Source: Rhodobacter capsulatus SB 1003
GTDB lineage: Bacteria; Pseudomonadota; Alphaproteobacteria; Rhodobacterales; Rhodobacteraceae
DNA length: 32,000 nucleotides
Direction: 5' to 3'
Assembly (NCBI RefSeq): GCF_000021865.1
Contig: NC_014034.1
Coordinates: 1,410,001 to 1,442,000 of the forward strand
Positions 4,259 to 21,498 of the stretch are shown here, piece by piece. A program made the position numbers and the translations under genes. The first letter of the stretch is position 1, and the number at the start of each line of letters is the position of its first letter. The notes beneath the pieces were generated by a model that was not told where the DNA came from, did no database searches, and saw nothing but the letters and a program-made list of their open reading frames with translations.

Positions 4259-5509
4259 ATGGAAACCCTGCCGATCCTCGTTCCGCCCGTCCTGAACCTG
4301 GTGAGCGCGATCGCCGTCGGTGCTCTCATTGGCACCGAGCGCGAGCGGCGCAAGGGCGAGGGACCGGCGCGCTCGCCTGCGGGGTTGCGCACCTTTGCCA
4401 TCGCCTCGACCGCCGGGGCGGTGGGTTTCAGTCTGGGCGGGGCGGTGCTTCTGGCCGTCGTCGCGGCCTCGGTCGCGGGGCTGCTGGCCGTGTCTTACGG
4501 CAAGCGTCCGCATCAGGATCCGGGGCTGACCACGGAAATCGTGCTGCTGCTGACGGTGCTGCTCGGTGGGCTCTGCATCCCCGCGCCGCAGATGGCGGCG
4601 GCGATCGCCGTCACGGTGACGGTGCTGCTGCATCTCAAGGCGTGGCTGCACACCTTGGTCACGACGCTGATTTCAAAGGATGAACTCGACGATGCGCTGA
4701 TCTTTGCCGCGGCGACGCTGGTGATCTTGCCCCTGGTGCCGGATCGGCCGATGGGGTCCTGGCTGGCGCTGAACCCGCATTCCTTGGGCATCGTGATCGT
4801 GCTGGTGATGGCGATCGGCGCGGCGGGCTATCTGGCGGTGCGGCTCTTCGGGGCGCGGTTCGGGTTGCCGCTGTCGGGGGCGCTCTCGGGGTTCGTCTCC
4901 AGCACCGCGACGATCGGCGCGATGGGGGCACGGGCGCTGCAATCGCCCGAGATGCGGGCCGCCTGCGTCGCGGGGGCGGTGCTCTCGACCGTGGCGACGG
5001 TGCTGCAGATGGCGCTGGTGCTGGCGGCGGTCAGCCTGCCGACGCTGCGCCAGATGATCCTGCCTTTGGTCTTCGCCGGGGTCACCGCCGTGGTTTACGG
5101 GGTGGTGCTGACGCTGGCGGCGATGCGCCATCCCGCGCCCGAGGCGCCCGGCCCCGGCAGCGCCTTCAGCCTGAAGACGGCGCTGATCTTCGGCACGGTG
5201 CTGGCGCTGGTGCTGGTCCTCGCGGCGGGGTTGCAGGCACATTTCGGCGGATCGGGCGTGCTTCTGGCGGCGACGGCGGCGGGGCTGGTCGACACCCATG
5301 CCTCGGCGATCTCGGTGGCGACGCTGGTCGCGGCGGGCAAGGTTGCTCCCGAGGCGGCGGCGGTGCCGATCCTGGCCGGGCTGAGCGCGAACACGGCGAC
5401 GAAGATCCTCGTGGCGGCGATCAGCGGCGGGCGCGGCTTTGCCCTGCGCGTCGTGCCGGGGCTGGTTCTGGTCATCCTGGCGGCCTGGGCGGGCAGTCTG
5501 TTCTGGTGA
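4259..5509 (+). CDS. Polytopic membrane protein, MgtC/SapB-like N-terminus with DUF4010-like remainder
   Basis: The track ORF is 4190..5509. I prefer ATG 4259 (GGAGG 5 nt upstream, METLPILV...). LVSAIAVGALIGTERERRK...AGLRTFAI matches the MgtC/SapB signature. The rest is a long, highly hydrophobic multi-helix region. Confidence 0.75.
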   Translation: METLPILVPPVLNLVSAIAVGALIGTERERRKGEGPARSPAGLRTFAIASTAGAVGFSLGGAVLLAVVAASVAGLLAVSYGKRPHQDPGLTTEIVLLLTVLLGGLCIPAPQMAAAIAVTVTVLLHLKAWLHTLVTTLISKDELDDALIFAAATLVILPLVPDRPMGSWLALNPHSLGIVIVLVMAIGAAGYLAVRLFGARFGLPLSGALSGFVSSTATIGAMGARALQSPEMRAACVAGAVLSTVATVLQMALVLAAVSLPTLRQMILPLVFAGVTAVVYGVVLTLAAMRHPAPEAPGPGSAFSLKTALIFGTVLALVLVLAAGLQAHFGGSGVLLAATAAGLVDTHASAISVATLVAAGKVAPEAAAVPILAGLSANTATKILVAAISGGRGFALRVVPGLVLVILAAWAGSLFW

Positions 5510-5674
5510 TCGGATGGATCCGAAGCCGGGCACCGTCCCCCTTGTGCCGTCGCAGGATGGCATGTGAGCCGGGCCTTCACACCTTTTCGGCCCGCTCTCC
5601 CGGCGCGCGATTTTGCCATACGCGCACAATACGAAACGGGGTTAGTCTTCCGGAAGAATCGTCAGGGTTGCATC

Positions 5675-6889
5675 ATGTCACTTCGTTTCAGGCAGACTTT
5701 CACACTTTTTCCCGGCGTCCGCATCAATGTCGGCAAGCGCGGCATCAGCACGAGCATCGGGGTCCCGGGCGCAACCTTCAACGTCGGGCGACAGGGCGTC
5801 CGGGCAACAGTCGGGCTGCCCGGAACCGGATTGGGGTTCAGCACCACCGTCATTCCGTTCACCTCATCGCCCGGAGCGGTGGAACTTGCGCCTCCCGCGC
5901 TTCCCCAGAACGCCCCGGCAGCGGTGCCCGCCGAAAGCCCGGCTGCGGGCAATACCCCGGCCTCGGCGAAAATCTACATGCCGGTCTCGGGGATGAACGA
6001 GATCGCCAGCGCCTCGGTCGAGGTTCTGACCAGCACCTCGCTGCTGCCGTTGCGGGATATGATTGCGCAGGCGCGCGAGCAGCGGACGCAGGTCACCGCG
6101 GATCTGAAGGAGGCGAAGGACGCCGAGGCGGCGCAGCAAAACGAGCTGCATCGCCGCCGCCGAAGCCTGTTCCGCTGGTTTTACAAACGGCGCATCGCCG
6201 AGCTTGAGGTCGAATTGCCCGTGACCCAAGCCGAGGTCGCAAGGCTGATCGCCTGGGAGGGCAGCACGAAGATCGACGTGACCTTCGAGTCCGGGGATGC
6301 CGCGCAGCGCGCCTATGCGGAGATGGTCCGGCTGTTCGAGGCGCTGCGACAGAGCGCGAAGAAATGGGATGTCACTTCACACCGGGCGGCGAACCGGGTG
6401 GCGGAGCGCACGACGGCGAGCCGCGTCATCGACCGTCATCCGGTCCGGTTGGAGTTCAGTTCGACGGATCTGATCCGCTTCCCCGGGCGCGCGATGCGCT
6501 TCGAGAACGTCAACGGCGACGATATCCTGATCTATCCCGGCGTCGCGGTCATCCCGCGCGTGGATGGCGCTTTCGCGCTGATCGACATTCGCGAACTCTC
6601 GATTTCGGCGACAAATTCGGGCTGTAAGGAAGAAGACGGCGTTCCGAAGGATGCGGAGGTCATCGGCCACACTTGGGCCAAGGCGAACAAGGACGGCTCG
6701 CCCGACCGGCGTTTCAAGGGAAACTACCAGATCCCCATCTGCCTTTACGGCAGTCTGGCGTTCCAGTCCGGGTCCGGCTTGACGGAGGAATACATGTTCT
6801 CGAACGCAGCGGCGGCCGAGGCCTTCGCGGCCGCGGTCGCAAGATATCAGGTGGCGCTCGCAGAGAGCGACGGGGCCTCGGAGCCGTGA
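5675..6889 (+). CDS. DUF4236-like domain protein with an unassigned C-terminal domain
   Basis: The in-frame ATG at 5675 gives MSLRFRQTFTLFPGVRINVGKRGISTSIGVPGATFNVGRQGVRATVGLPGTGLGFS, the Gly-rich repeat typical of DUF4236 N-termini. It is followed by a Pro/Ala linker, a charged coiled-coil-like segment and about 230 aa that I cannot assign. The track ORF starts at 5564. Confidence 0.7.
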   Translation: MSLRFRQTFTLFPGVRINVGKRGISTSIGVPGATFNVGRQGVRATVGLPGTGLGFSTTVIPFTSSPGAVELAPPALPQNAPAAVPAESPAAGNTPASAKIYMPVSGMNEIASASVEVLTSTSLLPLRDMIAQAREQRTQVTADLKEAKDAEAAQQNELHRRRRSLFRWFYKRRIAELEVELPVTQAEVARLIAWEGSTKIDVTFESGDAAQRAYAEMVRLFEALRQSAKKWDVTSHRAANRVAERTTASRVIDRHPVRLEFSSTDLIRFPGRAMRFENVNGDDILIYPGVAVIPRVDGAFALIDIRELSISATNSGCKEEDGVPKDAEVIGHTWAKANKDGSPDRRFKGNYQIPICLYGSLAFQSGSGLTEEYMFSNAAAAEAFAAAVARYQVALAESDGASEP

Positions 6890-7201
6890 GCCGGGGAGAA
6901 AGAAGTGCCATGAGCGCGAGCCAAAACAGGAGGAAAACGGGCCTACACAGGGATGCGTAACCGCTGGGAATCGCGGAATTGACGATGCGCTCTGCGATAT
7001 CTACGGATTCGGCCCAGACCGGTCGGTCGAGGCCACGCCGTCGCCGCAGCGCGGCTTCTCCGAACTGGACGGCCCATACTTGACGCAGCAAAGTCTTGGG
7101 CGAATGTCGCTGATGCGGACCGAACGGGCCTTCGTTGCTGATGCGTGAGGGACAGCTTTCTTCTGCTGGCCAGACAGTGGCGAGCATGCCAGCATTCCGA
7201 A

Positions 7202-7750
7202 ATGACCCGAGACATCCCAGAACTTCGGGGCGCCCGCGTCCGCCTGCGCCCCTTCCGCAGGTCCGATGTTGACGGGCGGCCCGCTCTCGGGCAGTCACCA
7301 GAAATCGTACATTGCTTCGGAGGCGACCCGACGGGCCTTTCCCCATATGAGGAAGGCGATGCCCGGGCATGGGTGGAGCGGAACCTTGCGCATCCCCTTT
7401 GTTGGGCGGTCGAGCTCGATGGCCGCCTGTTGGGGGAGGTTCGTCTGGACGGGCTTGATCTCCACGACGGCCGGGCGCGCTTGGCAATCGGGCTCTACGA
7501 CCTCTCGCAGCTTGGCAAAGGGCTGGGTCGTGAGGTGATCAAGCTGATCTTGTCGCATGCCTTCGGAACGCTGCAGCTGCACCGGGTCGACTTGCGAGTG
7601 CTCGCATACAATGAGCGAGCGATCCGGTGCTATCGCGCCTGCGGCTTCATCGAAGAAGGGCGCGAACGCGAGAGCGCTCGTGTTGGCGATGCTTGGCACG
7701 ACGACATCATCATGGGGGTGATCGCGCAAGAATACCTTCGTCAGACCTGA
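7202..7750 (+). CDS. GNAT-family N-acetyltransferase (RimJ/RimL-like)
   Basis: Track ORF 7145..7750, with an in-frame ATG at 7202 (MTRDIPELRGARVRLRPFRRSD...). It has a GNAT-type core: LGKGLGRE (the Q/RxxGxG/A acetyl-CoA loop) and HRVDLRVLAYNERAIRCYRACGFIEEGRERE. Confidence 0.8.
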   Translation: MTRDIPELRGARVRLRPFRRSDVDGRPALGQSPEIVHCFGGDPTGLSPYEEGDARAWVERNLAHPLCWAVELDGRLLGEVRLDGLDLHDGRARLAIGLYDLSQLGKGLGREVIKLILSHAFGTLQLHRVDLRVLAYNERAIRCYRACGFIEEGRERESARVGDAWHDDIIMGVIAQEYLRQT

Positions 7751-7896
7751 CAGAGCCGTCGTTCCGGAATGCCGAGGTTTCTACGACCCGCAGCAATGGT
7801 CAAAAATGCTCGCGGTCGACTTGGGCTGCGCCGTGCGTTGAACGTAGACACCGCGGACAAAGCGGATTTTCTGAGCATCTACGCTAACGCCGACTT

Positions 7897-8176
7897 TCAG
7901 TCGGATGAGAAATTGGCGATAAAATCGGCCGATTTCAGATGACCCAGACTTCGGGCCTCTTCCTCTGCGGTTAAGTCATCATCCACAAGGGTCGTAACGG
8001 CCCTATCTGCGCCCGCCATGAGCAGCATACGCATTGACCTGGAACACGAGCATCTTACAATACCTGATGCAACCCAACCGATACCATTCACTTGAAGCGC
8101 GGTCTCAGTGAAACTGGGCTTGAACCGGTCATGCGACAGCGCGGCGGGCCTTTCTCGAGGCCAGTGTCGGTGTGTC
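7897..8176 (-). pseudogene. Possible 3' fragment of a gene cut by the IS66 end at 8177
   Basis: The track ORF 7897..8361 reads straight through the IS66 terminal repeat at 8177, so only the part left of 8177 can be native sequence. This segment is less GC-rich than the core genes. No family recognised. Confidence 0.3.
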
Positions 8177-8680: not shown

Positions 8681-10462
8681 TCAGGCGACCATGTTTTCCG
8701 ACGGGTCTTCCGCGTCGCCGAGGGCGGCCTTACAATGCCAAGGCATCAACTGGCTGTAATCGGTCAATTCGCGGCTCAGTTCGATCTGGTCGACGACCCA
8801 GTTCAGATAGCGGAAGGGGTTCACACCGTTCAGACGGGCGGTTTCGATCAAGGTATTGAAGAGCGCCCATTTCTTCGCCGCTTCGTGGTTCCCGGCGAAG
8901 AGCGAGTTCTTCTTCGTAAGGGCAACGGGACGCATGCCGCGCTCGACCGGGTTGTTGTCGATCGCAATCCGACCGTCAAGAACATAACGGATCATGTCGT
9001 CCCACGCAGCCAGGAAGTAATTTGCGGCCGTCTTGAGGTTGCCCTTGGCCAAGGTGGGTTCGATCCGCAGCATGTCCGCACGGATCTTTTCGAGGACCGG
9101 CAACGCTTCCGCGACGCGCACCGCTTGGCGCTCCTCGGGCGACCGCCCGAAGACCCTCTCCTCCACCGCATAGACCGTCTTGAGCGCTTTGATCACGCGT
9201 TTCGCACAGGTGCTTGGCGCGGCCTTTTCCGCATCAGTGAACTTGCGGCGCACATGCGCCATGCAGCGCGCCAGCGTGAAGCCGGCGTTCTTGCCTGGCG
9301 CACGCCGGATGACGTTGTAGCCCTTGTAGCCGTCAACCTGGACGACCTGGCTCAGCGCCCCTTCGAGCATGCGTTCGGCGACATGGCCTCCTCTGGAGGG
9401 GTCATATTCGAAATAGATCGCCGGATGGGGGTCGCCGCCCCAGCCGCGCTCATCGCGGTGGATCGCCCAGAGAGTCCCCTTAATGCATTTTCCCCTCCCC
9501 TTCTCAGTCGGGATCACCCGCAGCGGCGTCTCATCCATATGCACGACAGGGCCTGCGGTCACATGTTTCCAGACTTCCTCCCAGAGCGGCTCCAGCTTCT
9601 CGGCGATATGGGTCGCGTTGCGGCCCAGCGTCGAGCGCGCAACGTTGCACCCATTGTCATGGTAGCGGCGCTCCGCTCGGAAGTCGGTGGAGTGCTCATA
9701 GAAATGCTGGCAGACGGCGTTGATCACGAACTTCGCGTCCAATGTGCGGCCCGCCATGATGTAGCCCGTGGCATGGGCGTTGTAGGGGGCGTGCTCCTTG
9801 CACGCCGCGCTGCAGTTGCAGCCGCGGCTGTAGTGAACGTGCTTTTCGAGCACGAAATGCTCCCGGACCACCCTGAGCCGAGAGCTGGTCCAAGAGCCGA
9901 GTGTCTTGAGTTTAGCCCCGCAGGAGCAGTGCGTTTCCTCGGGGAAATGCTTGTACACCTCGGTCTTGATGTTCTTTGGTCGCTTCTGTTTCTGCTTCCC
10001 TTTCCGGGGCTTCTGCTCCTCCTCCTCCTCCTCCTCGACATCGTCGTCGGGCACGTCATCCTCGTCGTCGTCCGCTCCCAGGAAATTGTTGTCGGAGCTG
10101 CCGCAGAAAGTCTGATGGCGCAGCAGATTCAACTGCTCCTTTTGGTAACGCAGGTCCTTTTTCAGCTTGACGATCCGGCGTTCGGCGGCGTTTTCGCGGT
10201 CCACCACCGCCTCGAACTCGACATGCGCATCGATCAGGCACTCCTGGATACCGCGTTTGACCTCCTCGCAACTGTGCGGCAACGCGTCGAGCAGATCCGA
10301 GATTTCCATGATGATCTCGGCCATGATGCTGAGCGTGCCGACGGAGATCTCTTCGGCTTCACTGTGGGCGGGTGTTTCTGCGACAGGCCCGGGATCGGTG
10401 TCACCGGACGGCGGAAACGGGCCGTTTGGAGGCGGGGCTTCAGCAGGATTGTTGTCATTCAT
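8681..10462 (-). CDS. tnpC: IS66-family DDE transposase (TnpC type)
   Basis: Track ORF 8681..10588; I prefer ATG 10462 (MNDNNPAE...). It has a leucine-zipper-like region ending LNLLRHQTFCGSSD and Cys-rich segments (HCSCGAKL...GCNCSAAC). The DDE core reads VVHMDETPLRV...VQVDGYKGYN...ARCMAHVRRKF, and the C-terminus reads IDNNPVERGMRPVALTKKNSLFAG...ETARLNGVNPFRYL. An unusual acidic/basic insert (DDDEDDVPDDDVEEEEEEEQKPRKGKQKQKRPK) is present. Confidence 0.9.
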   Translation of the reverse strand: MNDNNPAEAPPPNGPFPPSGDTDPGPVAETPAHSEAEEISVGTLSIMAEIIMEISDLLDALPHSCEEVKRGIQECLIDAHVEFEAVVDRENAAERRIVKLKKDLRYQKEQLNLLRHQTFCGSSDNNFLGADDDEDDVPDDDVEEEEEEEQKPRKGKQKQKRPKNIKTEVYKHFPEETHCSCGAKLKTLGSWTSSRLRVVREHFVLEKHVHYSRGCNCSAACKEHAPYNAHATGYIMAGRTLDAKFVINAVCQHFYEHSTDFRAERRYHDNGCNVARSTLGRNATHIAEKLEPLWEEVWKHVTAGPVVHMDETPLRVIPTEKGRGKCIKGTLWAIHRDERGWGGDPHPAIYFEYDPSRGGHVAERMLEGALSQVVQVDGYKGYNVIRRAPGKNAGFTLARCMAHVRRKFTDAEKAAPSTCAKRVIKALKTVYAVEERVFGRSPEERQAVRVAEALPVLEKIRADMLRIEPTLAKGNLKTAANYFLAAWDDMIRYVLDGRIAIDNNPVERGMRPVALTKKNSLFAGNHEAAKKWALFNTLIETARLNGVNPFRYLNWVVDQIELSRELTDYSQLMPWHCKAALGDAEDPSENMVA

Positions 10463-11842
10463 TTCCGGTGTCCATATTCTTCGGCGAAGTGCCTCCGGGT
10501 CGGGCGGTCTCTTGCTCGGGTGACCACTCAGGCGGTCCGTGGGAGGCGGAACCGATCGACAAGCATGACGAGGACAGCCCTCGGACACGCGAAAGCGCCG
10601 ATGCGATGTGGTTCTTGCTGTCTTGGTGTCCGACTTGATAACGCCGGTGCCGCGTCATTTCCTTGTGGTGATCCGCGTGAAATGCTTGGACCGACCGCCA
10701 GCGCTGATGGTTTCGGTCTAGGGAGTTTCTCGCGGCGCGCTGCAAGAGATGCTGCGCAACAGTTGTGAGCGTGTTGGAGGTCTTGGATTAACCCATATCG
10801 CCCTGAGGAGAGAGGCCGCCCGGCGCTTATCGCTATTGGCGTCCTGAAGAATTTCGTGAAATGGCCAGCATTAAGCCAATTTCATCGAAGTTGTTCCTGC
10901 ACAGAAACGCCGTCATTTCTGTGAGGATTTCCCCGAAACCTTACCTTTATGTTGCCATGCAGATCTGACATTGGAATTCATGGCGCGGCTCACTCGGTTA
11001 TTTGTCGCAGATCAGGAGAAATTATGAGGTGTTCAGCTGCATATAAACCAAACTTCCTTCTTGCACTTTCCGCCTTCCGGCCCGCGACTTGATATTTATC
11101 GCCCGAAGTGATTGCATTTGCCGCCAGCATCTCGCGAAAATAAACCTCACCCAGAGGTCCCGTATTTTGCTTGGCGTTTGCTGGTTGCAGCTATGTTCCT
11201 GCATTGCTGGATGCGTCAAGTCATGCTCTTGCCTCACTTTATTTACTTCAGCGGCGATCGCCGTTTCGTTCATTGCCGCACGCACAATGCGATCAGCCTC
11301 GCCAGCCTTTATGGATGGAGCAAATCGTTGGTGTACAGAAGTTTTTTTAAATATCGATCATTAACCATGATTTATTCGCAATTCGGCCTTTTGATAGAAT
11401 TCGTGGATTACAGCCTTGCGTTTCTGGCGACGCGAAGCTGCAAGAGGAGGAAAAATTCCATTTTTCGCTTTCCAAGATTTTTTTGTGTGATTCTTCGTGT
11501 CGCGATAAGGGGACCTCGCTCGCGATCGCTTCGCGAATGTCAATATATCTTTTAGTTGCGAAAGGGCGCCGCCAAAGCTGATTTTCGCCCGAATCGGTCC
11601 GCCTTCAACTCGGTCAGTGCGCCGACCCTGGAGCAACGCCAGATCGGTCGGTGATGCGCATTCGCACCCTCCCTGCGCCGCTGTTTTTCCGATCGGCCTG
11701 AGGATATGCGCTGTGCCAAGGGGATCGTTTTTCGCAATTGCGAAGGCCTGCCCGCGGGGGTTGCCAGTTTACCTCAAAGGTTGATACCGTCCCGACAGCA
11801 GCCGCCGTGGTTGCGCCATTGGATCAGGTGCAGCGGGACCGG

Positions 11843-14296
11843 ATGGACAAGAACGGCCTCTCGGAACGCGATATTTGTTCGATTTTCATTACCCCGGCAT
11901 TGCAAAAGGCGGGCTGGGATCCTGTGACCCAGATCCGGGAAGAGGTCGGCTTCACCCGCGGGCGGATCAATGTGCGCGGCAAACTCGTCAGCCGTGGCCA
12001 GGGCAAGCGCGCCGATTACATCCTGTCGATCCGGCCAAATATTCGCCTTGCGGTGATCGAGGCGAAGGACAACGCCCACGCCACCGGCGCTGGCATGCAG
12101 CAGGCCCTCGATTATGCCGAGACCCTGAACCTGCCGTTCGCTTTTTCCTCGAACGGGGACGGCTTCCTTTTTCATGACCGGACGGGGATGAGCCCCACGC
12201 CTGAGGTTCTCCTCTCACTCGACGACTTCCCTTCGCCCACCGAACTCTGGGCACGCTATTGCGCCTGGAAGGGGCTCGACGCCGCCGCAAGCTCCGTTGC
12301 GCTGCAGGACTACCACGACGACGGCAGCGGCAAGGAGCCGCGCTATTACCAGATCAACGCGGTGAACGCCGCAATGGAGGCGATCGGACGGGGTGAGAAC
12401 CGGGTGCTTCTTGTCATGGCGACGGGCACCGGCAAGACCTACACCGCGTTCCAGATCATCTGGCGTTACCGGCAGGCTTTTCCGGGCAAGCGGATCCTGT
12501 TCTTGGCCGACCGCAACGTGCTGATCGATCAGACCATGGTCAATGATTTTCGGCCCTTCTCTGGCAAGATGGCGAAACTCTCGACCCAGTCAAAGACGAT
12601 CGAACGCGCCGATGGCTCCTCGGTCGAGCTGCCCCTCGGCCTCGACCGCAAGCGTCGGATCGATCCGTCCTACGAAATCTACCTTGGTCTTTATCAGGCG
12701 ATCACCGGCCCGGCGGAAGAGGACAAGATCTTCCGCGAGTTTTCGCAAGACTTCTTCGACCTGATCATCATCGACGAATGCCACCGCGGCAGCGCTGCCG
12801 AGGACTCTGCCTGGCGCGAGATCCTCGATCATTTCTCGGGCGCGGTGCAGATCGGCATGACCGCGACGCCGAAGGAAACCGAATACGCGTCGAACATCGC
12901 CTATTTCGGCGCGCCGGCCTACAGCTATACCCTGCGGCAGGGCATCCGGGATGGTTTCCTCGCGCCCTACAAGGTGATCAAGGTCCATATCGACCGCGAC
13001 ATTCAGGGCTACCGCCCGGAAGCCGGCCAGACCGATCGCGATGGCGCGCTGGTCGAGGACCGGATCTACAACACCAAGGATTTCGACCGCACCCTCGTGC
13101 TGGATGACCGCACGAAACTGGTCGCGCGCAAGGTCACCGAATTTCTCAAGGAAAGCGGTGACCGGATGGCCAAGACGATCGTCTTTTGCGTCGATCAGGA
13201 GCATGCCGCCCGGATGCGGCAGGCGTTGGTGAATGAAAACGCCGATCTGGTGGCGCAAAATCCCCGCTATGTCATGCGCATCACCGGAAGCGACACGGAG
13301 GGCCTAGAGCAGCTGGGGAATTTTATCGACCCCGAGGTCTCGCATCCGGTGATCGTCACCACCTCGCGGCTTTTGTCGACCGGCGTCGATGCCCAGACCT
13401 GTCGTCTGATCGTGCTCGACCGCGAGGTAGGCTCGATGACCGAATTCAAGCAGATCGTCGGGCGCGGCACCCGGGTGCATGAAGACACGGGCAAGCTTTA
13501 CTTCACGCTGATGGATTTTCGCGGCGCGACGAACCATTTTGCCGATCCCGATTTCGACGGCGAGCCGGTGCAGATCTACACGCCCACCGGCACGGACCCG
13601 ATCGTGCCGCCCGACGACGTTCCGCCGCCAGAGGGGGACGAGCCGCCCCTTTCCGCCACGCCGGGGCCGGACGAGACGGTGCTGATCGACCCGGTCGCAA
13701 CGCTGGGGCAAACCGGGTCAGGCGCGCCGCAACGCAAGATCTATGTCGATGGCGTCGCCGCGACCATTGTCGCGGAACGCGTCGAATACCTTGACGAACA
13801 CGGCAGGCTGATCACCGAATCCTTGCGCGACTACACCCGCAAGGCGCTGAAACGGCGCTTTGCCAGCCTTGATGATTTCCTCAAACGCTGGAAGACGCCC
13901 GAAAAGAAACAGGCCGTGCTCGACGAGCTTGCGGCCGAGGGGTTGCCGCTCGATCTCGTGGCGGCGGAGCTTGGTCGCGATCTCGACCCGTTCGACCTGA
14001 TCTGCCATATCGCCTTCGACGCCAAGCCCCTGACCCGCCGCGAACGCGCCGAGGGCGTCAAGAAACGCGATGTCTGGGCGCGCTACGGCGCCACCGCGCG
14101 CGCCGTGCTGACTGCGCTCCTCGACAAATACGCCGACGACGGGCTTCTCGATTTTGACGACCCCAAGATCCTGAAAATAAATCCCTTCTCGCAAATGGGA
14201 ACCGAGGTTGAACTGATCCGGGCTTTCGGCAAGAAGCAGGACTACCTGAAGGCCATGCACGATCTGCAGGCTGCCCTTTACGATGAAAGCGCCTGA
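11843..14296 (+). CDS. hsdR: Type I restriction enzyme R subunit (EcoEI/EcoAI-like C-terminus, i.e. type IB-like)
   Basis: Track ORF 11738..14296, with an in-frame ATG at 11843 (MDKNGLSERDICSIFITPAL). It has the PD-(D/E)xK-like motif RADYIL...LAVIEAKD, helicase motif I LLVMATGTGKTYTA, and the DEAH-type box LIIIDECHRGS. The C-terminal segment DDFLKRWK...DPFDLICHIAFDAKPLTRRERA resembles the EcoEI R C-terminal domain. Confidence 0.9.
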   Translation: MDKNGLSERDICSIFITPALQKAGWDPVTQIREEVGFTRGRINVRGKLVSRGQGKRADYILSIRPNIRLAVIEAKDNAHATGAGMQQALDYAETLNLPFAFSSNGDGFLFHDRTGMSPTPEVLLSLDDFPSPTELWARYCAWKGLDAAASSVALQDYHDDGSGKEPRYYQINAVNAAMEAIGRGENRVLLVMATGTGKTYTAFQIIWRYRQAFPGKRILFLADRNVLIDQTMVNDFRPFSGKMAKLSTQSKTIERADGSSVELPLGLDRKRRIDPSYEIYLGLYQAITGPAEEDKIFREFSQDFFDLIIIDECHRGSAAEDSAWREILDHFSGAVQIGMTATPKETEYASNIAYFGAPAYSYTLRQGIRDGFLAPYKVIKVHIDRDIQGYRPEAGQTDRDGALVEDRIYNTKDFDRTLVLDDRTKLVARKVTEFLKESGDRMAKTIVFCVDQEHAARMRQALVNENADLVAQNPRYVMRITGSDTEGLEQLGNFIDPEVSHPVIVTTSRLLSTGVDAQTCRLIVLDREVGSMTEFKQIVGRGTRVHEDTGKLYFTLMDFRGATNHFADPDFDGEPVQIYTPTGTDPIVPPDDVPPPEGDEPPLSATPGPDETVLIDPVATLGQTGSGAPQRKIYVDGVAATIVAERVEYLDEHGRLITESLRDYTRKALKRRFASLDDFLKRWKTPEKKQAVLDELAAEGLPLDLVAAELGRDLDPFDLICHIAFDAKPLTRRERAEGVKKRDVWARYGATARAVLTALLDKYADDGLLDFDDPKILKINPFSQMGTEVELIRAFGKKQDYLKAMHDLQAALYDESA

Positions 14297-14301
14297 GGCC
14301 A

Positions 14302-15747
14302 ATGTCCGTCCGCACCCTCGTCAAATCGCTGCAACAGATCATGTGGAAGGACACCGGCGTCGACGGCGATGCGCAACGGCTCAGCCAGATGTGCTGGATG
14401 TTCTTCCTCAAGATCGTCGACGATCAGGACGAGGCCCTCGAACTCACCCGCGACGATTACACCTCGCCGATCCCAGCCGATCTGCAGTGGCGCGCCTGGG
14501 CGGCCGACCCCGAGGGGATGACTGGCGATCAACTTCTGAGCTTCGTCAACGAAGAGCTCTTCCCCGGCCTCAAAGGCCTGCGCCCCGCCACCCCCCGCGC
14601 CCGCACCATCCGCGACGTCTTCGAAGACGCCTACAACTTCATGAAATCCGGGCAGCTGCTGCGGCAGGTGATCAACAAGATCAACGAGATCGATTTCAAC
14701 AACCTCTCCGAACGCCAGCATTTCGGCGACATTTACGAACAGCTCCTCAACGACCTGCAAAACGCCGGCAACGCGGGCGAATATTACACCCCCCGCGCCG
14801 TCACCGCCTTCATGGTCGAGCGCATCGACCCCCGCCCCGGCGAGATCGTGATGGACCCCGCCTGCGGCACCGGCGGCTTTCTCACCTGCGCCATGCGCCA
14901 CATGCGCGCCCGCCATATCCGCCTACCCGAACACGAAGACGCCATGCAGCGCTCCTTGCGCGCGGTCGAAAAGAAACCGCTGCCGCACATGCTTTGCGTC
15001 ACCAACATGCTGCTCAATGGCATCGAAGAGCCGCATTTCGTCCGCCACGACAACACCCTCGCTCGCCCGCTCACCAGCTGGACCCGCGACGAGCGCGTCG
15101 ACATCGTGCTGACCAACCCGCCCTTTGGCGGCAAGGAAGAAGACGGCATCGAGAACAACTTCCCCACCTTCCGCACTCGCGAAACCGCCGATCTGTTCCT
15201 TGCCCTGATCATCCGCCTGCTCAAGCCCGGTGGCCGCGCCGCCGTGGTTCTGCCCGACGGCTCGCTCTTCGGCGAGGGCATCAAGACCCGGCTGAAAGAG
15301 CACCTGATGGCCGAATGCAACCTGCACACCATCGTGCGGCTGCCCAATTCGGTCTTCAAACCCTATGCCTCGATCGGCACCAACCTGCTGTTCTTCGAAA
15401 AGGGCACCCCCACCACCGAGACATGGTTCTGGGAACATCGCGTCCCCGAGGGGCAAAAGGCCTATTCGATGACGAAGCCGATCCGGCTTGACCATCTGGC
15501 GGGCTGTGCGGACTGGTGGGGCGGCGCCACCCGCGAGGGGCGCGTCGAAGGCCCGCAGGCCTGGAAGGTCTCGGCCGAGGAGATCAAGGCCCGCGGCTAC
15601 AACCTCGACATCAAGAACCCCCATGCCGAGGCCGAGGATCTGGGCGACCCCGAGCATCTTCTGGCCGCGCTCGACGAGGCCGAGGCCGAGGTCACCCGCC
15701 TGCGCGCGGCCTTGAAAGAGATCCTGACCGAGGCGCTGGCGCGATGA
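14302..15747 (+). CDS. hsdM: Type I R-M N6-adenine DNA methyltransferase M subunit
   Basis: It starts 5 nt after the hsdR stop. AdoMet motif I is MDPACGTGGFL and catalytic motif IV is LTNPPFGG. The HsdM-type N-terminus reads WMFFLKIVDDQDE. Confidence 0.92.
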   Translation: MSVRTLVKSLQQIMWKDTGVDGDAQRLSQMCWMFFLKIVDDQDEALELTRDDYTSPIPADLQWRAWAADPEGMTGDQLLSFVNEELFPGLKGLRPATPRARTIRDVFEDAYNFMKSGQLLRQVINKINEIDFNNLSERQHFGDIYEQLLNDLQNAGNAGEYYTPRAVTAFMVERIDPRPGEIVMDPACGTGGFLTCAMRHMRARHIRLPEHEDAMQRSLRAVEKKPLPHMLCVTNMLLNGIEEPHFVRHDNTLARPLTSWTRDERVDIVLTNPPFGGKEEDGIENNFPTFRTRETADLFLALIIRLLKPGGRAAVVLPDGSLFGEGIKTRLKEHLMAECNLHTIVRLPNSVFKPYASIGTNLLFFEKGTPTTETWFWEHRVPEGQKAYSMTKPIRLDHLAGCADWWGGATREGRVEGPQAWKVSAEEIKARGYNLDIKNPHAEAEDLGDPEHLLAALDEAEAEVTRLRAALKEILTEALAR

Positions 15748-17426
15748 ACGCCGATCAGCTTTTGCGCCTTTACGACCGGGTCTGCGAGGCCGAGGACGCC
15801 GTCCCCCGCCTGCGCCGGTTTGTCCTCGATCTGGCCGTGCGCGGCAAACTGGTGCCGCAGGACCCGGACGATGAACCGGCCTCCGAACTGCTGAAACGGA
15901 TCGAGAAGGAAAAGGCCCGGCTGGTGAATACGGGGGAGATCCGGAAGCCTAAGTCGCAGACCCCGTTGAACGGCGATGTTTGCCCGTTTCTCGTTCCTCG
16001 GGGATGGGCTCTTACGCGCCTCGGTTCGGTGATCGATCTGCTATCGGGGCAACACCTGCAACCGAATGAATATTCATCCAATCCGGCGGCAGGCATCCCT
16101 TATATCACTGGCCCTTCCGATTTTGCCGAAGTTGGCCTTTCCATTTCGCGTTACGCCCTTGTGCGAAAGGCAGTCGCGCGTGGTGGGCAACTCCTTCTCA
16201 CCGTGAAAGGATCAGGTGTTGGCAAGACCACGATCTGTGATCTTCCCGAGGTCGCAATCAGCCGCCAACTGATGTCACTTGCACCGATCCTGTGGTCGAT
16301 CAGATTTCTGGAAATCATAACGCACCGTCTGGCAGACACGCTTCAAGAGCAAGCCCGCAGCCTGATCCCCGGAATATCCCGGGAGGACGTTGCAGACTTC
16401 GCGTTCCCCCTCCCACCCCTCGCAGAGCAACACCGCATCGTTGCCAAGGTCGAGGAACTGATGGCGCTGCTCGACCGGATCGAGGCGGCGCGGGCGGGGC
16501 GAGAGGAGGGGCGCAACCGCCTGACCGCCGCCACCCTTGCCCGCCTGACCGACCCCAAGGCCGACGCCCCCGCCGCCGCCCGCTTCGCGCTGGACACCCT
16601 CGCCCCCCTCACCACCCGCCCGGACCAGATCAAGACCCTGCGCCAAACCATCCTCAACCTCGCCGTCCGAGGCAAACTGGTCCCGCAAGACCCGGCAGAC
16701 GAACCGGCGTCGGAGTTGCTGAAACGGTTCAAGGCGGCCAAGATCGCACATAAATGGGAGACCGGAGATGCGCGGAATAAACTTGCGCCCGACGCTGAAG
16801 TATCGAGCTACCCGCTGGAATTGCCCAAGGGCTGGGCGGTGCAGTCCTTCGAGAACCTGTTTCTTTTCATCGACTATCGTGGCAACACGCCCCCAAAGAC
16901 CGATAGCGGTGTGCCACTGATCACGGCCAAGAACGTTCGCATGGGGTCACTCAACCGCGAGCCAAGGGAGTTCATTTCAGAAAAGACCTTCAAGTCTTGG
17001 ATGACCAGAGGCTTTCCCAAGCTGGGCGATCTTTTTTTCACCACCGAAGCCCCTCTTGCCAACGTTTGTCTGAATGACATTCAGGAGCCGTTTGCGCTCG
17101 CGCAGCGAGTGATCTGTCTTCAGCCTTATGCTGAAATCAGCACCCACTACTTGATGCTGGCGCTTTGTGGCGACGTGATGCAGTCGTTGATTGATGGGCA
17201 AGCAACAGGGATGACGGCAAAGGGTATCAAGGCATCCAAGCTTAAACCGCTTCCCATCTCCCTCCCCCCCCTCGCCGAACAACACCGCATCGTGGCCAAG
17301 GTGGACGCCCTGATGCGCCTCCTCGACGCTCTCGAGGCGGCGCTGAGCGCCTCGGCCACCACCCGCGCCCGCCTCCTCGACGCCACCCTGCGCGCCGCGC
17401 TGACCGACACCGGAGAAGCCGCATGA
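15744..17426 (+). CDS. hsdS: Type I R-M specificity subunit (two target-recognition domains)
   Basis: ATG 15744 overlaps the hsdM stop (ATGA); the track ORF begins earlier, at 15516. The conserved regions are duplicated: LAVRGKLVPQDP(D/A)DEPASELLKR occurs twice and PPLAEQHRIVAKV(E/D) occurs twice. Each flanks a variable region, as expected for HsdS. Confidence 0.9.
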   Translation: MNADQLLRLYDRVCEAEDAVPRLRRFVLDLAVRGKLVPQDPDDEPASELLKRIEKEKARLVNTGEIRKPKSQTPLNGDVCPFLVPRGWALTRLGSVIDLLSGQHLQPNEYSSNPAAGIPYITGPSDFAEVGLSISRYALVRKAVARGGQLLLTVKGSGVGKTTICDLPEVAISRQLMSLAPILWSIRFLEIITHRLADTLQEQARSLIPGISREDVADFAFPLPPLAEQHRIVAKVEELMALLDRIEAARAGREEGRNRLTAATLARLTDPKADAPAAARFALDTLAPLTTRPDQIKTLRQTILNLAVRGKLVPQDPADEPASELLKRFKAAKIAHKWETGDARNKLAPDAEVSSYPLELPKGWAVQSFENLFLFIDYRGNTPPKTDSGVPLITAKNVRMGSLNREPREFISEKTFKSWMTRGFPKLGDLFFTTEAPLANVCLNDIQEPFALAQRVICLQPYAEISTHYLMLALCGDVMQSLIDGQATGMTAKGIKASKLKPLPISLPPLAEQHRIVAKVDALMRLLDALEAALSASATTRARLLDATLRAALTDTGEAA

Positions 17427-18361
17427 CTACTCTGCCAAAGGGAAAAAGCCTCTGGATCCGCTCCTTCTACGGGTTCAACCCAGAAGAGGACGGCTATGCC
17501 GGATGGACGAAGGAGGCCGGGCGCGACCACATTCTCAAGCATATCAAGGGCGGGGATCTGATCCTTATCTATGGTGCGGGCTCGAAAGAGACGGACAAGG
17601 CACTGCGGTCCTATGTCCTCGGCTTCCTGCAGGTCGACGCAACCCCGATCGATGACCGCGACAAGGCCTCGCCCGAAAGCCTGAAACGCAAGGCAGCACA
17701 GGGCTGGGCAAATAAATGGACGTTCGGAATTCCGGTGCGCAGGGCGTGGCGGGTCGATGAAAAGCTGCTGATCCGCTCCATTGCTTTCAACACCTATCGC
17801 CCGGAGGCCGGACAGGCCATCGGGGTCTGGGGGGCCGCGCTCGAGCCGGAGGAAATAGAGAAGGCGCTGAAGATCAGGGTCACCGAGGTGAACGTGTTCG
17901 GCGAGCCGCCGATTGCTGCGACCGGTCTTAAAAAGGCTCCGCTGGGCGATGAATTCAAGCCCTCACGCGGGTTTCCGGGCGCGTTCGGAACCCACACATC
18001 TACCAAGAATGACGGCGAGACCTGGCTCTATCTGTTCAGGTTCGAGGGCGACTGTCACGCGCTTGTAGGGCGCCCCAAGGCACACGGTGGCAAATCACTC
18101 GCGTGGAAGATCGGCGTCTCGAGCGACACGGCGGCACGGCTTGGACAACTGAATTTGGGAATCCCGCCCGCCGCGAAGGGGCGATGGGGCCAGTTCCTGC
18201 AGGCGCGGTTTCCCGACCGCAGATCCGCAGAAGCGGCCGAACAGCGTTTCAAGGATGAGAGCAACGGCAAGCTGGAAAGTCTGGGGGGCGAATTTTTCTG
18301 GGGCGATGAGATGCAGGCGATGCTGCTCTTCGCTGGAATTCCGGGCGTTTCGAGGTTTTGA
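17423..18361 (+). CDS. Hypothetical protein coupled to hsdS: T5orf172/GIY-YIG-like C-terminal domain, possibly PUA-like (EVE/ASCH-type) N-terminal domain
   Basis: ATG 17423 overlaps the hsdS stop (ATGA). The C-terminus WLYLFRFEGD...WKIGVSSDTAARLGQLNLGIP...AEQRFKD...LGGEFFWGD follows the T5orf172 pattern (YIY..., KIG.T, R...LN, E..H..F, EWF). In the N-terminus, GGDLILIYGAG...SYVLGFLQV is reminiscent of PUA-like folds, but that assignment is weak. Confidence 0.6.
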   Translation: MTTLPKGKSLWIRSFYGFNPEEDGYAGWTKEAGRDHILKHIKGGDLILIYGAGSKETDKALRSYVLGFLQVDATPIDDRDKASPESLKRKAAQGWANKWTFGIPVRRAWRVDEKLLIRSIAFNTYRPEAGQAIGVWGAALEPEEIEKALKIRVTEVNVFGEPPIAATGLKKAPLGDEFKPSRGFPGAFGTHTSTKNDGETWLYLFRFEGDCHALVGRPKAHGGKSLAWKIGVSSDTAARLGQLNLGIPPAAKGRWGQFLQARFPDRRSAEAAEQRFKDESNGKLESLGGEFFWGDEMQAMLLFAGIPGVSRF

Positions 18362-18777
18362 TCGGCAACGTGATGACGTCGTCCGCACCTTCTGAACTGT
18401 CTCGGATGCCCCTGGCACATGACACCATCAGCGCGATCCTGGACTGTGTGCCACTGCTGGCAGGACCGCAGCACTAACGTGACGGGCGATTTGGCGCCGT
18501 TGATGTTGCAGTTGCCGCATCTTGTGATAGCGTCCCGTGGTCGTCTCTCCCGGAGCGGCTGCAACGCGCAGTTTTCAGCCATGCAGATCCCCAGCGCCGT
18601 GCGGCGCGGATCCGAATGTTCGGCCCTTTGCCGGCGGCAGAGCCTCGGCGCGCCCTTTCGAAACGGCCGTTCAGGCACGGCGGAGAGACGGGGCAAGCTT
18701 AGCCGTTTGCCGTCTGTATTGCGCGATGCAGCATCGCCTGAGCTCTCTCGGATGACCAACAGAGCTTACATATAAGC

Positions 18778-18796
18778 ATATCATCCGATATGATAT
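18778..18796. promoter_or_regulatory. Inverted repeat ATATCAT-CCGAT-ATGATAT upstream of the ATPase gene; candidate operator or promoter element
   Basis: Read directly. It lies exactly at the GC-rich to AT-rich transition, about 20-35 nt upstream of the candidate starts at 18818 and 18833. Confidence 0.25.
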
Positions 18797-18817
18797 CCGG
18801 AATCCAACGCTGTTTTC

Positions 18818-20554
18818 TTGCTGGGGCTCCAAGTGAAAATCAAATATCGGATAAATAACTTTAAGGCTTTTTCGGACAGTGGGGAGATGTCATTCTCTCC
18901 CGTGACTGTGCTCTGTGGGGCTAACAGCACAGGAAAGAGCTCTATAATAAAGTCTATTCTTCTTGCAAAGCAAAGCACAGCCGAGCGAAGAAGCTCACTC
19001 AAGATTGATGCTCCGTCTCAACCACTGATACTAAATGGTGAGTTGACCAAGCTCGGCGCATGGAGCGATACGATTACCGGTAAAGATCGCGCGAAATCAA
19101 TGGGCTTCTGTTGGTCTGTAAAGCTATCTCAAGAAGAGTTCGATGATGCATTAAAGCGAGCTGGTTTGCTGAGGCGAGGTGAAGCCAGTTCAGAGTTAGA
19201 TTTGGCGAACCAAAGAGATTTAACTCTCTCAGTTTCTTTAAGCTCAGACACCGAAGTCCGAGAGGAACTCTCAGCGCGAGTTGATCGGTGGGATGTTAAT
19301 CTTGACGATCTGAACGTACGAGTGTTTAGGCAGGAGGTCGCAAACGGCTCTCGACCTTTGTATCGTGTCGAAATTAATAGTATAAGAAAATTAATAAGGA
19401 GGAAAGGGTCCAAATTTGGATCATATCGCGTTATACTCGGCGACCTGCACAAGGCACTTTCTGGCGCTGATACCCCGATAAGCCTTGGGAATGTGTACGC
19501 CGTCAACTCTGGCCCCTTTATTGGTAGAATTGAGCCTCGATTCGATGAGACTTGGACTAATTTTTTTGAAGCAATTTACAAATTGTCCGTATCGCACAGA
19601 GGACGAAAACGCGGACCGGCACCTGGATGGCTAGAAGATCTCGGGGCAGCGGTACGAACCTACAGGAAAGGTCTTTCTGAAGGAAAGATGCCAACCGCGC
19701 GCAATACCGCCATGCGAGTTCTTACCTATCTCGCGATTGAATTCGTTAGTGAGATATCGCTTGTTTTCTCCGAGACAAAAGCAGTCCTCGCTCCTATGTG
19801 GCAAGACATCCGCTATCTAGGCCCATTAAGAGATCAGCCCAGGCGATACTACCAATTTGATGATACTGGTGGAGCTGATGTAGGTGTCAGTGGAGAATTT
19901 ACTGTGCAGGTCCTCGCGCTAGAGCAAGGAAGGGTCCTTCAATCAACTCGACTAGCCAGTCTGCCTTCGAATAGAATTAAATTCACCGATCGAAAATTAA
20001 CCACCCTTTTGGACCATACAAATTTTTGGTTGAGTTGGATGGGGCTTCCCGCAGTTTCGCCTCTCAATTTGCAGCAATCCCTATATGGCCTTGCCGTGGG
20101 GGATCTTCGGGTTGGTCTTCTGGATGTGGGATTTGGCGTGAGCCAAGTTTTGCCAATTATAGTTGAGACACTCAGGGCCGAGAAAGGCGATCTCGTAATT
20201 CTTGAGCAACCAGAGATCCACTTGCACCCGAGAGTGCAGGCACTTCTTGGAGATTTTCTTCTTGCTAGGTCTCAGGATGGTGTTCGCTTTCTTGTCGAGA
20301 GTCACAGTGAATACCTAATAAAGAGACTTTGCCGCAGAGTATCTGAATCGGAATCTGAAAATTTGCGACCAAGTATTGAGATTCTTTTTATAGAAGGATC
20401 ACCCGAAGGCGCAAGCTGCAGGCCCGTAGAACTGAATGACTATGGTGAAATACTAAATTGGCCTAAGGGCTTCTTCGATTTGGATGAGGATCTTCATTGG
20501 ACACATGCTGCCCTCGAGAGAAGACGAGCAAGCAACGCCAAGAAGCAGAAGTAG
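18818..20554 (+). CDS. ABC/SMC-like AAA ATPase (AAA_15/AAA_21-type) with DUF3696-like C-terminus
   Basis: The track start at 18818 is TTG. The in-frame GTG at 18833 (VKIKYRINNFKAFSD) is an equally plausible start. Motifs: Walker A VLCGANSTGKSS, YLGPLRDQPRRYY, DVGFGVSQVLPII, Walker B-like DLVILEQPEIHLHP, H-loop-like ESHSEYL, and C-terminal NWPKGFFD. Confidence 0.85.
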   Translation: MLGLQVKIKYRINNFKAFSDSGEMSFSPVTVLCGANSTGKSSIIKSILLAKQSTAERRSSLKIDAPSQPLILNGELTKLGAWSDTITGKDRAKSMGFCWSVKLSQEEFDDALKRAGLLRRGEASSELDLANQRDLTLSVSLSSDTEVREELSARVDRWDVNLDDLNVRVFRQEVANGSRPLYRVEINSIRKLIRRKGSKFGSYRVILGDLHKALSGADTPISLGNVYAVNSGPFIGRIEPRFDETWTNFFEAIYKLSVSHRGRKRGPAPGWLEDLGAAVRTYRKGLSEGKMPTARNTAMRVLTYLAIEFVSEISLVFSETKAVLAPMWQDIRYLGPLRDQPRRYYQFDDTGGADVGVSGEFTVQVLALEQGRVLQSTRLASLPSNRIKFTDRKLTTLLDHTNFWLSWMGLPAVSPLNLQQSLYGLAVGDLRVGLLDVGFGVSQVLPIIVETLRAEKGDLVILEQPEIHLHPRVQALLGDFLLARSQDGVRFLVESHSEYLIKRLCRRVSESESENLRPSIEILFIEGSPEGASCRPVELNDYGEILNWPKGFFDLDEDLHWTHAALERRRASNAKKQK

Positions 20555-20562
20555 ATAAATAG

Positions 20563-21498
20563 ATGAGTGTCTTTCTAGATCCCAACATCTACTGCTACTC
20601 CATTGATGAGTGGCAGCAGGGCGCTGCTCTTGATCGTATGCATCATTTGACAACTTTCCTTGAAAGTCTTGGTATTGAAGAGGAGCGATTAGAAGCCAGA
20701 AATCAGGTAGAATTGTGGCTTAGCGAAATCTTGATTTTCGCGACGTATGAAATGAATCCAAATATTAACACTCCACCAAATGGGTTTTACTTTCGGCAGT
20801 ATGTATCCGGGCTACTCCCTGCCTTGATGCGCAGGAAAATTACTTTCGAAGCGCCCGCGGTCGACGCCTGCAGGGCATCTGAGCGGATAAATATAGATAA
20901 TTGCGTCATTGAAGAGGCATTAATATGCGCCCTAGATGAAATTTCAACCGATGACGCCAAAAAAATTACTTATATTTTCGCCTCATCACGTGTTAGCTTA
21001 GCTCTCGGAGGAGGGGTATTCTCTGCAGAATTTGAGATTAATGAGGTGAATGGAAGGCACTTTCTGGATGAGTGTGATCTATTTCCTTTGTCGAGCAAAG
21101 TATCCCCAGATATTGCGATCGTCGCAGCTGCTGAAGTTCTGAAAGATAAACTTTCGATTGAGGATGCAACTTGGAGAGAACATTCAGTTTGCAAGGCTAT
21201 TCTTCACGAAAATTTTCTTCCGTCCATCACGCGTGCTGATTTTGGCGCTGATGAGCGTATATATCATTCCCGGGTTGTTTATTCACTGCTGCAGATTTTG
21301 TCTGGTCGAAACTGCACCATAAATGAGCATTCAATGAATCCTGAGAAAATTTGGTTTGACAAGAAATGGCATGGAAAGTGGAATTCATATGTGTTCAGAA
21401 ACGGTCCGAGTGATATTGATTCGAGGTGTTCACGGATTTACTATGCTAAAGTAGATGGCGGAGTTCTTCTCTATGAATACAATGGCGATGCACACTAG
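20563..21498 (+). CDS. 311-aa protein with no family I recognise, partner of the ATPase; the C-terminal ~60 aa show a RelE/YoeB-like pattern (tentative)
   Basis: The ATG lies 8 nt after the ATPase stop, on the same strand and with the same AT-rich composition. I see no HNH, TOPRIM, DUF4435 or DUF262 motifs. The C-terminus KWHGKWNSYVFRN...SRIYYAKVDGGVLLYEYNGDAH resembles the GxWSRRI...HRLVYAV.DD.LLI..CRYHY layout of YoeB/RelE toxins. Confidence 0.7.
   Translation: MSVFLDPNIYCYSIDEWQQGAALDRMHHLTTFLESLGIEEERLEARNQVELWLSEILIFATYEMNPNINTPPNGFYFRQYVSGLLPALMRRKITFEAPAVDACRASERINIDNCVIEEALICALDEISTDDAKKITYIFASSRVSLALGGGVFSAEFEINEVNGRHFLDECDLFPLSSKVSPDIAIVAAAEVLKDKLSIEDATWREHSVCKAILHENFLPSITRADFGADERIYHSRVVYSLLQILSGRNCTINEHSMNPEKIWFDKKWHGKWNSYVFRNGPSDIDSRCSRIYYAKVDGGVLLYEYNGDAH

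Follow-up and report, generated by a model that had tools for sequence, protein, structure and literature searches.

A putative modification-dependent nuclease encoded by the last gene of a type IB restriction-modification operon in Rhodobacter capsulatus

Fusions of an EVE domain with a GIY-YIG domain were catalogued as "numerous" by Bell, Wolf and Koonin in 2020 and listed as predicted type IV enzymes (PMC7641849). That work is a prediction without experiments, and it extends to stand-alone EVE proteins beside type I restriction-modification (R-M) systems, mostly in archaea. An N-terminal reader followed by a C-terminal nuclease is also the layout of the characterised modification-dependent enzymes of the PUA superfamily, and a DNA methyltransferase lies within 3 kb of fewer than 6% of the characterised type IV enzymes that join a PUA domain to a nuclease (PMC6765204). 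Here we analyse a gene of Rhodobacter capsulatus SB 1003 located at 17423..18361 on the plus strand of the window, meaning the whole stretch of 32,000 nucleotides under study (contig NC_014034.1, positions 1,410,001 to 1,442,000). It is the fourth and last gene of an EcoAI-family hsdR-hsdM-hsdS operon. From the open reading frame (ORF), its homologues and an AlphaFold2 model, its 312-amino-acid product is predicted to consist of an EVE-like reader, a linker and a T5orf172/GIY-YIG nuclease domain.

The protein shares with the catalogued fusions the idea of an EVE reader joined to a nuclease of the GIY-YIG superfamily, predicted to restrict modified DNA. Its family is already part of that catalogue, since the published EVE sequence set includes the Mesorhizobium protein QAZ42771.1 (PMC7641849), residues 1-111 of which are 48% identical to residues 12-121 of the window protein (E 2e-38). 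The EVE-GIY-YIG kind of protein is thus not new, and the modestly new point is its tight operonic coupling to R-M genes. As far as we found, the near-obligate place behind R-M operons and the overlap with hsdS are not described in that study, and in the searchable literature we met no account of the family closing diverse R-M operons as their translationally coupled final gene. Nor did we find a characterised EVE-GIY-YIG enzyme in the literature. The characterised enzymes TspA15I, VcaM4I and TagI (EVE- or SRA-HNH; PMC6765204) have the same N-terminal PUA-superfamily reader and C-terminal nuclease in one small polypeptide, whereas the nuclease here is of the T5orf172/GIY-YIG type, not HNH or PD-(D/E)XK. 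They differ in setting as well, because in most loci of the present family an R-M system lies directly upstream.

With somewhat better than an even chance, judging by sequence and modelled structure, the product of the fourth gene is a type IV-like enzyme, acting on its own as a modification-dependent DNA endonuclease or nickase. In such an enzyme the EVE-like barrel would extrude a modified base from DNA and examine it, and the T5orf172/GIY-YIG domain would cut or nick close by. The gene would share its mRNA with the type IB R-M genes, with its translation coupled to that of hsdS. HsdR would attack unmodified foreign DNA, and the fourth protein would deal with phage DNA that HsdR misses, whether modified or hypermodified. 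Given the shared mRNA and the coupling, we therefore propose that the operon covers both unmodified and modified invaders. The computational analysis shows the ORF, its overlap with hsdS, the two-domain layout, the conserved catalytic-type residues and the recurrent place behind R-M systems; the DNA substrate, the dependence on a modified base, the identity of that base and the benefit to the host are what we infer from these.

The host operon is of type IB, because NCBIfam NF046051, the model for R subunits of the EcoAI/FtnUII family, scores 1119 bits (cut-off 550) on its restriction subunit, which also contains Pfam EcoEI_R_C (4.6e-33), with HsdM and HsdS encoded there too. The hsdR gene (11738..14296, plus strand) additionally matches Pfam ResIII and HSDR_N and PADLOC REase_I (1062 bits), and its real start may lie slightly 3' of the called one because the family match starts at residue 41. 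It is followed by hsdM (14302..15747, plus strand), encoding the N6-adenine DNA methyltransferase subunit (Pfam N6_Mtase 1.3e-70 and HsdM_N, PADLOC MTase_I), and by the specificity gene hsdS (15744..17426, plus strand; Pfam Methylase_S, PADLOC Specificity_I 1.2e-129). These matches bear out the first-pass annotation, made from the sequence alone, which had read the upstream genes as a type I R-M operon. It had also pointed out that the fourth gene starts on the hsdS stop in the same type of junction as that between hsdM and hsdS, and both junctions are indeed ATGA overlaps. The hsdM stop and hsdS start overlap at 15744-15747, and the fourth-gene ATG (17423-17425) shares its ATGA with the hsdS stop TGA (17424-17426). 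A Shine-Dalgarno-like GGAG at 17412-17415 lies 7 nucleotides 5' of this ATG, the whole arrangement of GGAG, spacer and ATGA spanning 17412..17426 on the plus strand. In all ten type IB loci in which a homologue directly follows hsdS, the two genes keep a four-nucleotide ATGA or GTGA overlap, which makes it more than a chance arrangement. The fourth gene and hsdS are also alike in composition (GC 60.7% and 61.3%; GC at third codon positions, GC3, 73% and 72%).

A word-indexed search returned 330 homologous proteins, nearly all of about 312 amino acids, and an exhaustive search returned 569 clusters at 50% identity, 103 of them with E <1e-30. The family is mainly alphaproteobacterial, and its members carry database names such as "GIY-YIG nuclease family protein" and "T5orf172 domain"; WP_011842197 of Cereibacter sphaeroides is labelled "EVE domain-containing protein" by NCBI. 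The full-length AlphaFold2 model (mean predicted local distance difference test score, pLDDT, of 84) contains two domains joined by a low-confidence linker of little conservation (residues ~161-198; 17903..18016, plus strand), within which residues 181-192 fall below a pLDDT of 50. The two domains diverge at an equal rate. Domain assignments are weak for the single protein and solid at the level of the family and of the predicted structure. Pfam matches were surveyed in 37 relatives (54-74% identity) and residue conservation in 39 relatives 23-51% identical to the window protein. For the window protein itself, an NCBIfam search gave only a weak PRK00809 match, and no PADLOC model matched at E up to 0.1.

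The N-terminal EVE/PUA-like domain (residues ~9-160; 17447..17902, plus strand) is supported by Pfam matches in relatives, Foldseek, conservation and the published EVE set. Pfam EVE matches 21 of the 37 relatives at E <0.1, with a best value of 2.1e-4. When the modelled domain was compared with the PDB by Foldseek, the top matches were all EVE/PUA-like, the best being PH1033 (2hd9, E 3.5e-4, TMt 0.55), followed by 2ar1 (5e-4) and further by 5j3e, 6n0s, 2g2x and 2eve. Among these, 5j3e is human THYN1 with DNA containing 5-methylcytosine (5mC) and 6n0s is the N-terminal domain of Staphylothermus McrB; YTH domains also appear in the list. The modelled pseudo-barrel thus fits solved EVE structures. 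Residues P20, G67, A108 and W109 are invariant and W11, G17, W99 and R107 nearly so, and the model places W11, W99, R107 and W109 on the barrel strands. What had first been a weak guess at a PUA-type (EVE/ASCH) reader is consequently strengthened by the Pfam survey, the structural matches and the catalogued Mesorhizobium relative.

The C-terminal domain (residues ~199-305; 18017..18337, plus strand) is a predicted nuclease domain of the T5orf172 type, within the GIY-YIG superfamily. The window protein itself gave no Pfam T5orf172 or GIY-YIG match up to E 10, whether searched at full length or as halves. Among the 37 relatives, T5orf172 matches 32 (best E 2.1e-5), MUG113 20 and GIY-YIG 11, and some relatives pass the T5orf172 cut-off (27.3 bits in L058). 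The residues Y203, K229, G231, R239, P248, W255, E273, E290 and F291 are invariant. This set corresponds to the GIY-YIG/T5orf172 pattern of Tyr, K-x-G, Arg and Glu, as read from the alignment, and the codons concerned include Y203 (18029-31), K229 (18107-09), G231 (18113-15), R239 (18137-39), E273 (18239-41) and E290 (18290-92), all on the plus strand. In that superfamily the Tyr sits in the first strand ("GIY"), the K/Y-I-G motif in the second strand and the catalytic Arg in helix 1, while the Glu binds metal. Among PDB sequences, a profile search found a single marginal GIY-YIG match, 1ywl (E 0.047), which aligns G231, R239 and the E270 region. Modelled alone, the domain reaches a pLDDT of 89.5 and has 26 matches below 1e-3 among the viral predicted structures of BFVD (TMq 0.53-0.69), led by T5orf172, Bro-N and CapR-homology proteins; through these viral models a GIY-YIG-type alpha/beta fold is predicted. 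The motifs WLYLFRF, KIGVSSD..R.GQLN and GGEFFW, on which the first reading of a T5orf172/GIY-YIG module had been based, are all present in the translation, and the module itself holds in view of the Pfam matches in relatives, the fold and the invariant catalytic-type residues.

T5orf172 is a subfamily of GIY-YIG whose members include proven nucleases, at least one of which needs a conserved Glu for activity (PMC8263062, PMC10448857). Odn/Gp88 and NixI, from the conflict between ICP1 and PLE, belong to the same domain family, have the conserved Arg and Glu, and share with the fourth protein a modular layout of targeting domain plus T5orf172 (PMC8263062; bioRxiv 10.1101/2021.07.12.452122). They differ in that they carry sequence-specific DNA-binding domains and are encoded by phage or satellite, whereas the fourth protein has a predicted base-reader domain and a chromosomal gene, and no homologue of it turned up in the phage records searched.

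The genomic setting of the family was surveyed in loci gathered by protein look-up, genome scan and metagenome scan, with neighbours typed by tblastn and Pfam. The single-protein genome scan gave only 8 loci, and the survey rests on the alignment-based metagenome scan. The first-pass annotation had made its idea depend on the gene being conserved beside hsd genes in other genomes; of 33 non-redundant loci with enough flank, about 29 have it next to R-M genes. At least five kinds of upstream system are represented. The homologue directly follows type IB hsdRMS in the window and in L009, L016, L017, L018, L020, L022, L024, L043 and L044; in other type IB loci it is separated from hsdRMS by a DUF6998 gene (L013, L032, L034/35, L037, L038) or by an ORF of 305 amino acids (L040). 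Other type I families, with the gene order M-S-R, precede it in L029, L039 and L047. In L003, L005, L006 and L007 a further type I family is followed by a DUF4917 gene (1.9e-70; about 6940..7983 in these loci), which lies between hsdS and the homologue and overlaps the start of the latter by 4 nucleotides. In these distant relatives the coupling is thus alike, with another gene as the upstream partner.

Outside type I systems, an Eco57I-like methylase and a ResIII helicase of ~850 amino acids precede the homologue, which is then followed by Mrr, in L001, L002 and L025 (methylase/helicase pairs at 5428..7971, 4676..7243 and 92..2395, respectively). That helicase has a T5orf172 domain of its own in the N-terminal 125 residues (31.8 bits, E 2.1e-7). 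The same methylase/helicase pair is linked to the homologue through DUF6998 in L023/42 and is divergent from it in L041. The homologue also follows an MmeI-like single-chain enzyme (L026), a 1086-amino-acid N6_N4 methylase with a helicase (L030/31) and a PLD-helicase with a NucS/DUF5655 gene (L021). Away from R-M genes, it occupies the gap between gltA and lpxB (L014/15/33), lies beside Sua5 (L036) or in an AbiE island (L004), and in L058 (6062..7942) it follows rnc and has a 310-amino-acid N-terminal extension.

The stand-alone copies among housekeeping genes (L014/L015, L036, L058) show that the protein is not lethal without a cognate methylase and that it needs no R-M partner. They agree with the architecture, in which a reader and a predicted nuclease are united in one protein with no methyltransferase required. 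The unrelated R-M partners, the frequent Mrr neighbour (L001, L002, L017, L025), the invariant catalytic-type residues and the lack of covariation with hsdS likewise fit a type IV-like enzyme. Several observations weigh against this reading. The sequence signals for EVE are weak: the full-length window protein matches Pfam EVE over residues 27-95 at 16.1 bits (E 0.012), its N-terminal half alone reaches 17.9 bits, both short of the 23-bit cut-off, and hhalign found no match between the family profile and one canonical EVE sequence. Foldseek found nothing significant for the C-terminal model in the PDB, where the best GIY-YIG structure was UPF0213 (1zg2, E 1.0), and the searchable literature contains no biochemical or genetic test of any family member. 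Finally, the family is nearly always linked to a methylase, against fewer than 6% of the known PUA-nucleases, a hint that its function is more closely bound up with R-M than simple co-location would imply. This contrast keeps alive three readings in which the protein is an accessory subunit, a guardian of the R-M system or a reader of N6-methyladenine (m6A).

In the first of these, which we hold to be unlikely, the protein would depend on its R-M system, docking on the methylase/specificity core or on the translocase and lending it a reader, a nuclease or both, with the complex restricting modified DNA. The coupling to hsdS kept in all ten direct type IB junctions suggests matched production, a methylase-plus-helicase system nearly always precedes the gene, and the T5orf172 domain of the L001-type helicase offers a GIY-YIG domain with which its own might pair. 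The same role has been put forward for EVE proteins that stand alone beside type I systems (PMC7641849). A common docking surface is nevertheless improbable across at least five unrelated partner architectures, and the stand-alone copies among housekeeping genes, the DUF6998 gene or 305-amino-acid ORF that can separate hsdS from the gene, and the absence of the gene from most plasmid type IB operons all weigh against this reading. Similarly unlikely is a more general version, in which the protein would be no independent type IV enzyme but a portable fourth component for many different ATP-dependent R-M machines, either extending their reach from unmodified to modified DNA or serving as a tripwire for their inhibition. 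On that view the overlap with the final R-M gene would be conserved because the proteins must be made in matched amounts and assemble physically.

A guardian or abortive-infection effector, silent as long as the R-M complex is intact and turned loose on the nucleic acid of host and phage once a phage anti-restriction protein has disabled that complex, appears distinctly improbable. PrrC is the model for this idea, an anticodon nuclease of the ABC-ATPase type tied to one R-M complex. Of the analogy to PrrC drawn in the first-pass annotation, the position stands: like PrrC in the EcoprrI type IC locus, the fourth gene is a predicted accessory nuclease gene within a type I R-M operon and predicted to be co-expressed with it. 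It shows no homology to PrrC/RloC: the proteins share no sequence or domain similarity, no PADLOC model matches, the domains are EVE-like and T5orf172, and the fourth gene follows many unrelated R-M types or stands alone. A guardian would gain some credit from co-translation with HsdS inside a type I operon, from PrrC and PARIS as precedents (PMC12707154), and from a neighbourhood with the character of a defence island, which includes an AAA_15/DUF3696 ATPase in the window as well as in relatives, together with Hachiman and Mrr in the latter. A base-reader domain would, however, be needless for sensing the inhibition of a protein. GIY-YIG enzymes, moreover, are known as DNA nucleases, not as tRNases.

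The partner methylases bear on the base that might be read. All those identified are of the amino-methyltransferase type (N6_Mtase, Eco57I, MmeI_Mtase, N6_N4_Mtase), and a protein whose PUA-like domain read m6A, in the manner of YTH and ASCH domains, could attack foreign or dense m6A, such as that made by promiscuous Dam-like phage enzymes, or could treat host m6A as a mark of self that prevents cleavage. PUA-like ASCH domains, and T5orf172 by way of the RAMA domain, have been tied to N6-adenine R-M systems (PMC4738411), and YTH domains and the McrB N-terminal domain are among the Foldseek matches. We still regard an m6A reader as quite unlikely. The best structural matches are EVE domains, of the type that reads 5mC or 5-hydroxymethylcytosine, not YTH, and the stand-alone copies make a requirement for cognate methylation doubtful. 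The host DNA carries m6A from this operon, and in alphaproteobacteria CcrM methylates GANTC as well. A plain m6A-dependent nuclease would be toxic to its own cell because that DNA is already marked.

How the gene travels relative to its operon is informative as well. Between the type IB loci and the window, the fourth gene is 55-75% identical where hsdS varies from 35 to 69%, and the gene thus does not track the R-M target sequence. Its identity to the window copy correlates loosely with that of hsdM (Spearman 0.53, n=15). On plasmids, 58 records contain an HsdM homologue and 4 a homologue of the fourth gene, which is accordingly an accessory and not a core part of type IB operons. Plasmid p420573 of Paracoccus seriniphilus (L079) has a type IB operon with an HsdM 79% identical to that of the window, in which hsdS is followed by another, hypothetical gene of 489 amino acids (11258..12727), also with a 4-nucleotide overlap. 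The position after hsdS seems to be a general cargo slot. The same plasmid operon has genes with FRG and NucS domains embedded between hsdR, hsdM and hsdS.

A variable slot of this sort could have received a selfish gene resembling a homing endonuclease, or a DNA-binding regulator that was domesticated and whose nuclease no longer works. T5orf172 is a characteristic domain of homing endonucleases in phages, and one of the proteins that carry it, CapR, has been domesticated as a repressor (PMC10448857, PMC8096241). We nonetheless find such a landing after hsdS very improbable. A homing origin is made unlikely by the predicted reader domain, which is not a sequence-specific DNA-binding module, by the absence of any fourth-gene homologue from 50,697 phage records, and by a GC and GC3 content like that of the hsd genes. 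The catalytic-type residues are invariant, and the loose correlation of its divergence with that of hsdM also speaks against such an arrival.

The self-contained modification-dependent nuclease that we favour would have a counterpart in the immigration control region of E. coli K-12, where hsdRMS lies adjacent to mrr and mcrBC and type I and modification-dependent nucleases give complementary coverage. There the type IV genes are separate transcription units, whereas here the gene is joined to the operon by a start/stop overlap. If this reading is right, a single mRNA would protect the cell from unmodified DNA as well as from modified phage DNA not caught by type I restriction, which would be a compact way of countering the hypermodification of phage DNA. 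A first specificity for an EVE-GIY-YIG enzyme would add a new nuclease chemistry to the enzymes available for mapping modified bases. The placement behind R-M genes, so rare among known PUA-nucleases (<6%), offers a testable hint that classical and modification-dependent restriction are coupled.

A gene of ~156 amino acids with a DUF6998 domain (PF22522, 3.4e-49) very often lies immediately 5' of the homologue. Examples are L013 (7478..7948) and L011 (7497..7982), with others in L023, L028, L032, L034, L037, L038, L063, L065, L069, L074 and L075. Because the two are often adjacent with or without hsd genes, they may form a two-gene module. The window has no DUF6998 gene, and we found no literature on DUF6998. 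Some longer members of the family have N-terminal extensions of 80-330 amino acids (P0128, P0132, P0140, P0142, P0184, P0191, P0219, P0241 and L058). We considered fusions to DUF6998 as their origin and rejected them, as no Pfam match was found in the extensions.

The chromosome of R. capsulatus SP36 contains a fragment (L008, 7931..8194) in which only the final ~70 nucleotides of hsdS and the opening 65 codons of the fourth gene are present. This fragment is 95% identical at the nucleotide level to window positions 17353-17616, with unrelated sequence beyond, and looks like what is left of an operon copy that decayed or was disrupted.

Downstream of the fourth gene, an intergenic stretch of 456 nucleotides (18362..18817) holds a 118-amino-acid ORF with no family match (18419..18775) and a weak terminator-like hairpin (18692-18711). 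A promoter-like site at 18765-18794 lies ahead of a cassette of two genes on the plus strand, an AAA_15/AAA_21 ATPase with DUF3696 (18818..20554; PADLOC NsnB 5.9e-61, HEC-03B and PDC-M55A) and a 311-amino-acid protein with no family match (20563..21498). The cassette has a GC content of 43-47% against 61-64% for hsdRMS and the fourth gene, and for this reason looks recently acquired and is a candidate defence pair. A functional link between it and the fourth gene was provisionally rejected on account of the GC gap, the 456-nucleotide spacing and the promoter-like site in front, although a similar ATPase with a gene of ~320 amino acids does follow the homologue in L003, L005, L006 and L007. Upstream of hsdR lies an IS66-family transposase gene on the minus strand (8681..10588; DDE_Tnp_IS66 1.4e-72), and a plus-strand ORF of 677 amino acids at 8735..10768 was dismissed as a shadow ORF, its GC3 being 61% against 77% for the transposase gene.

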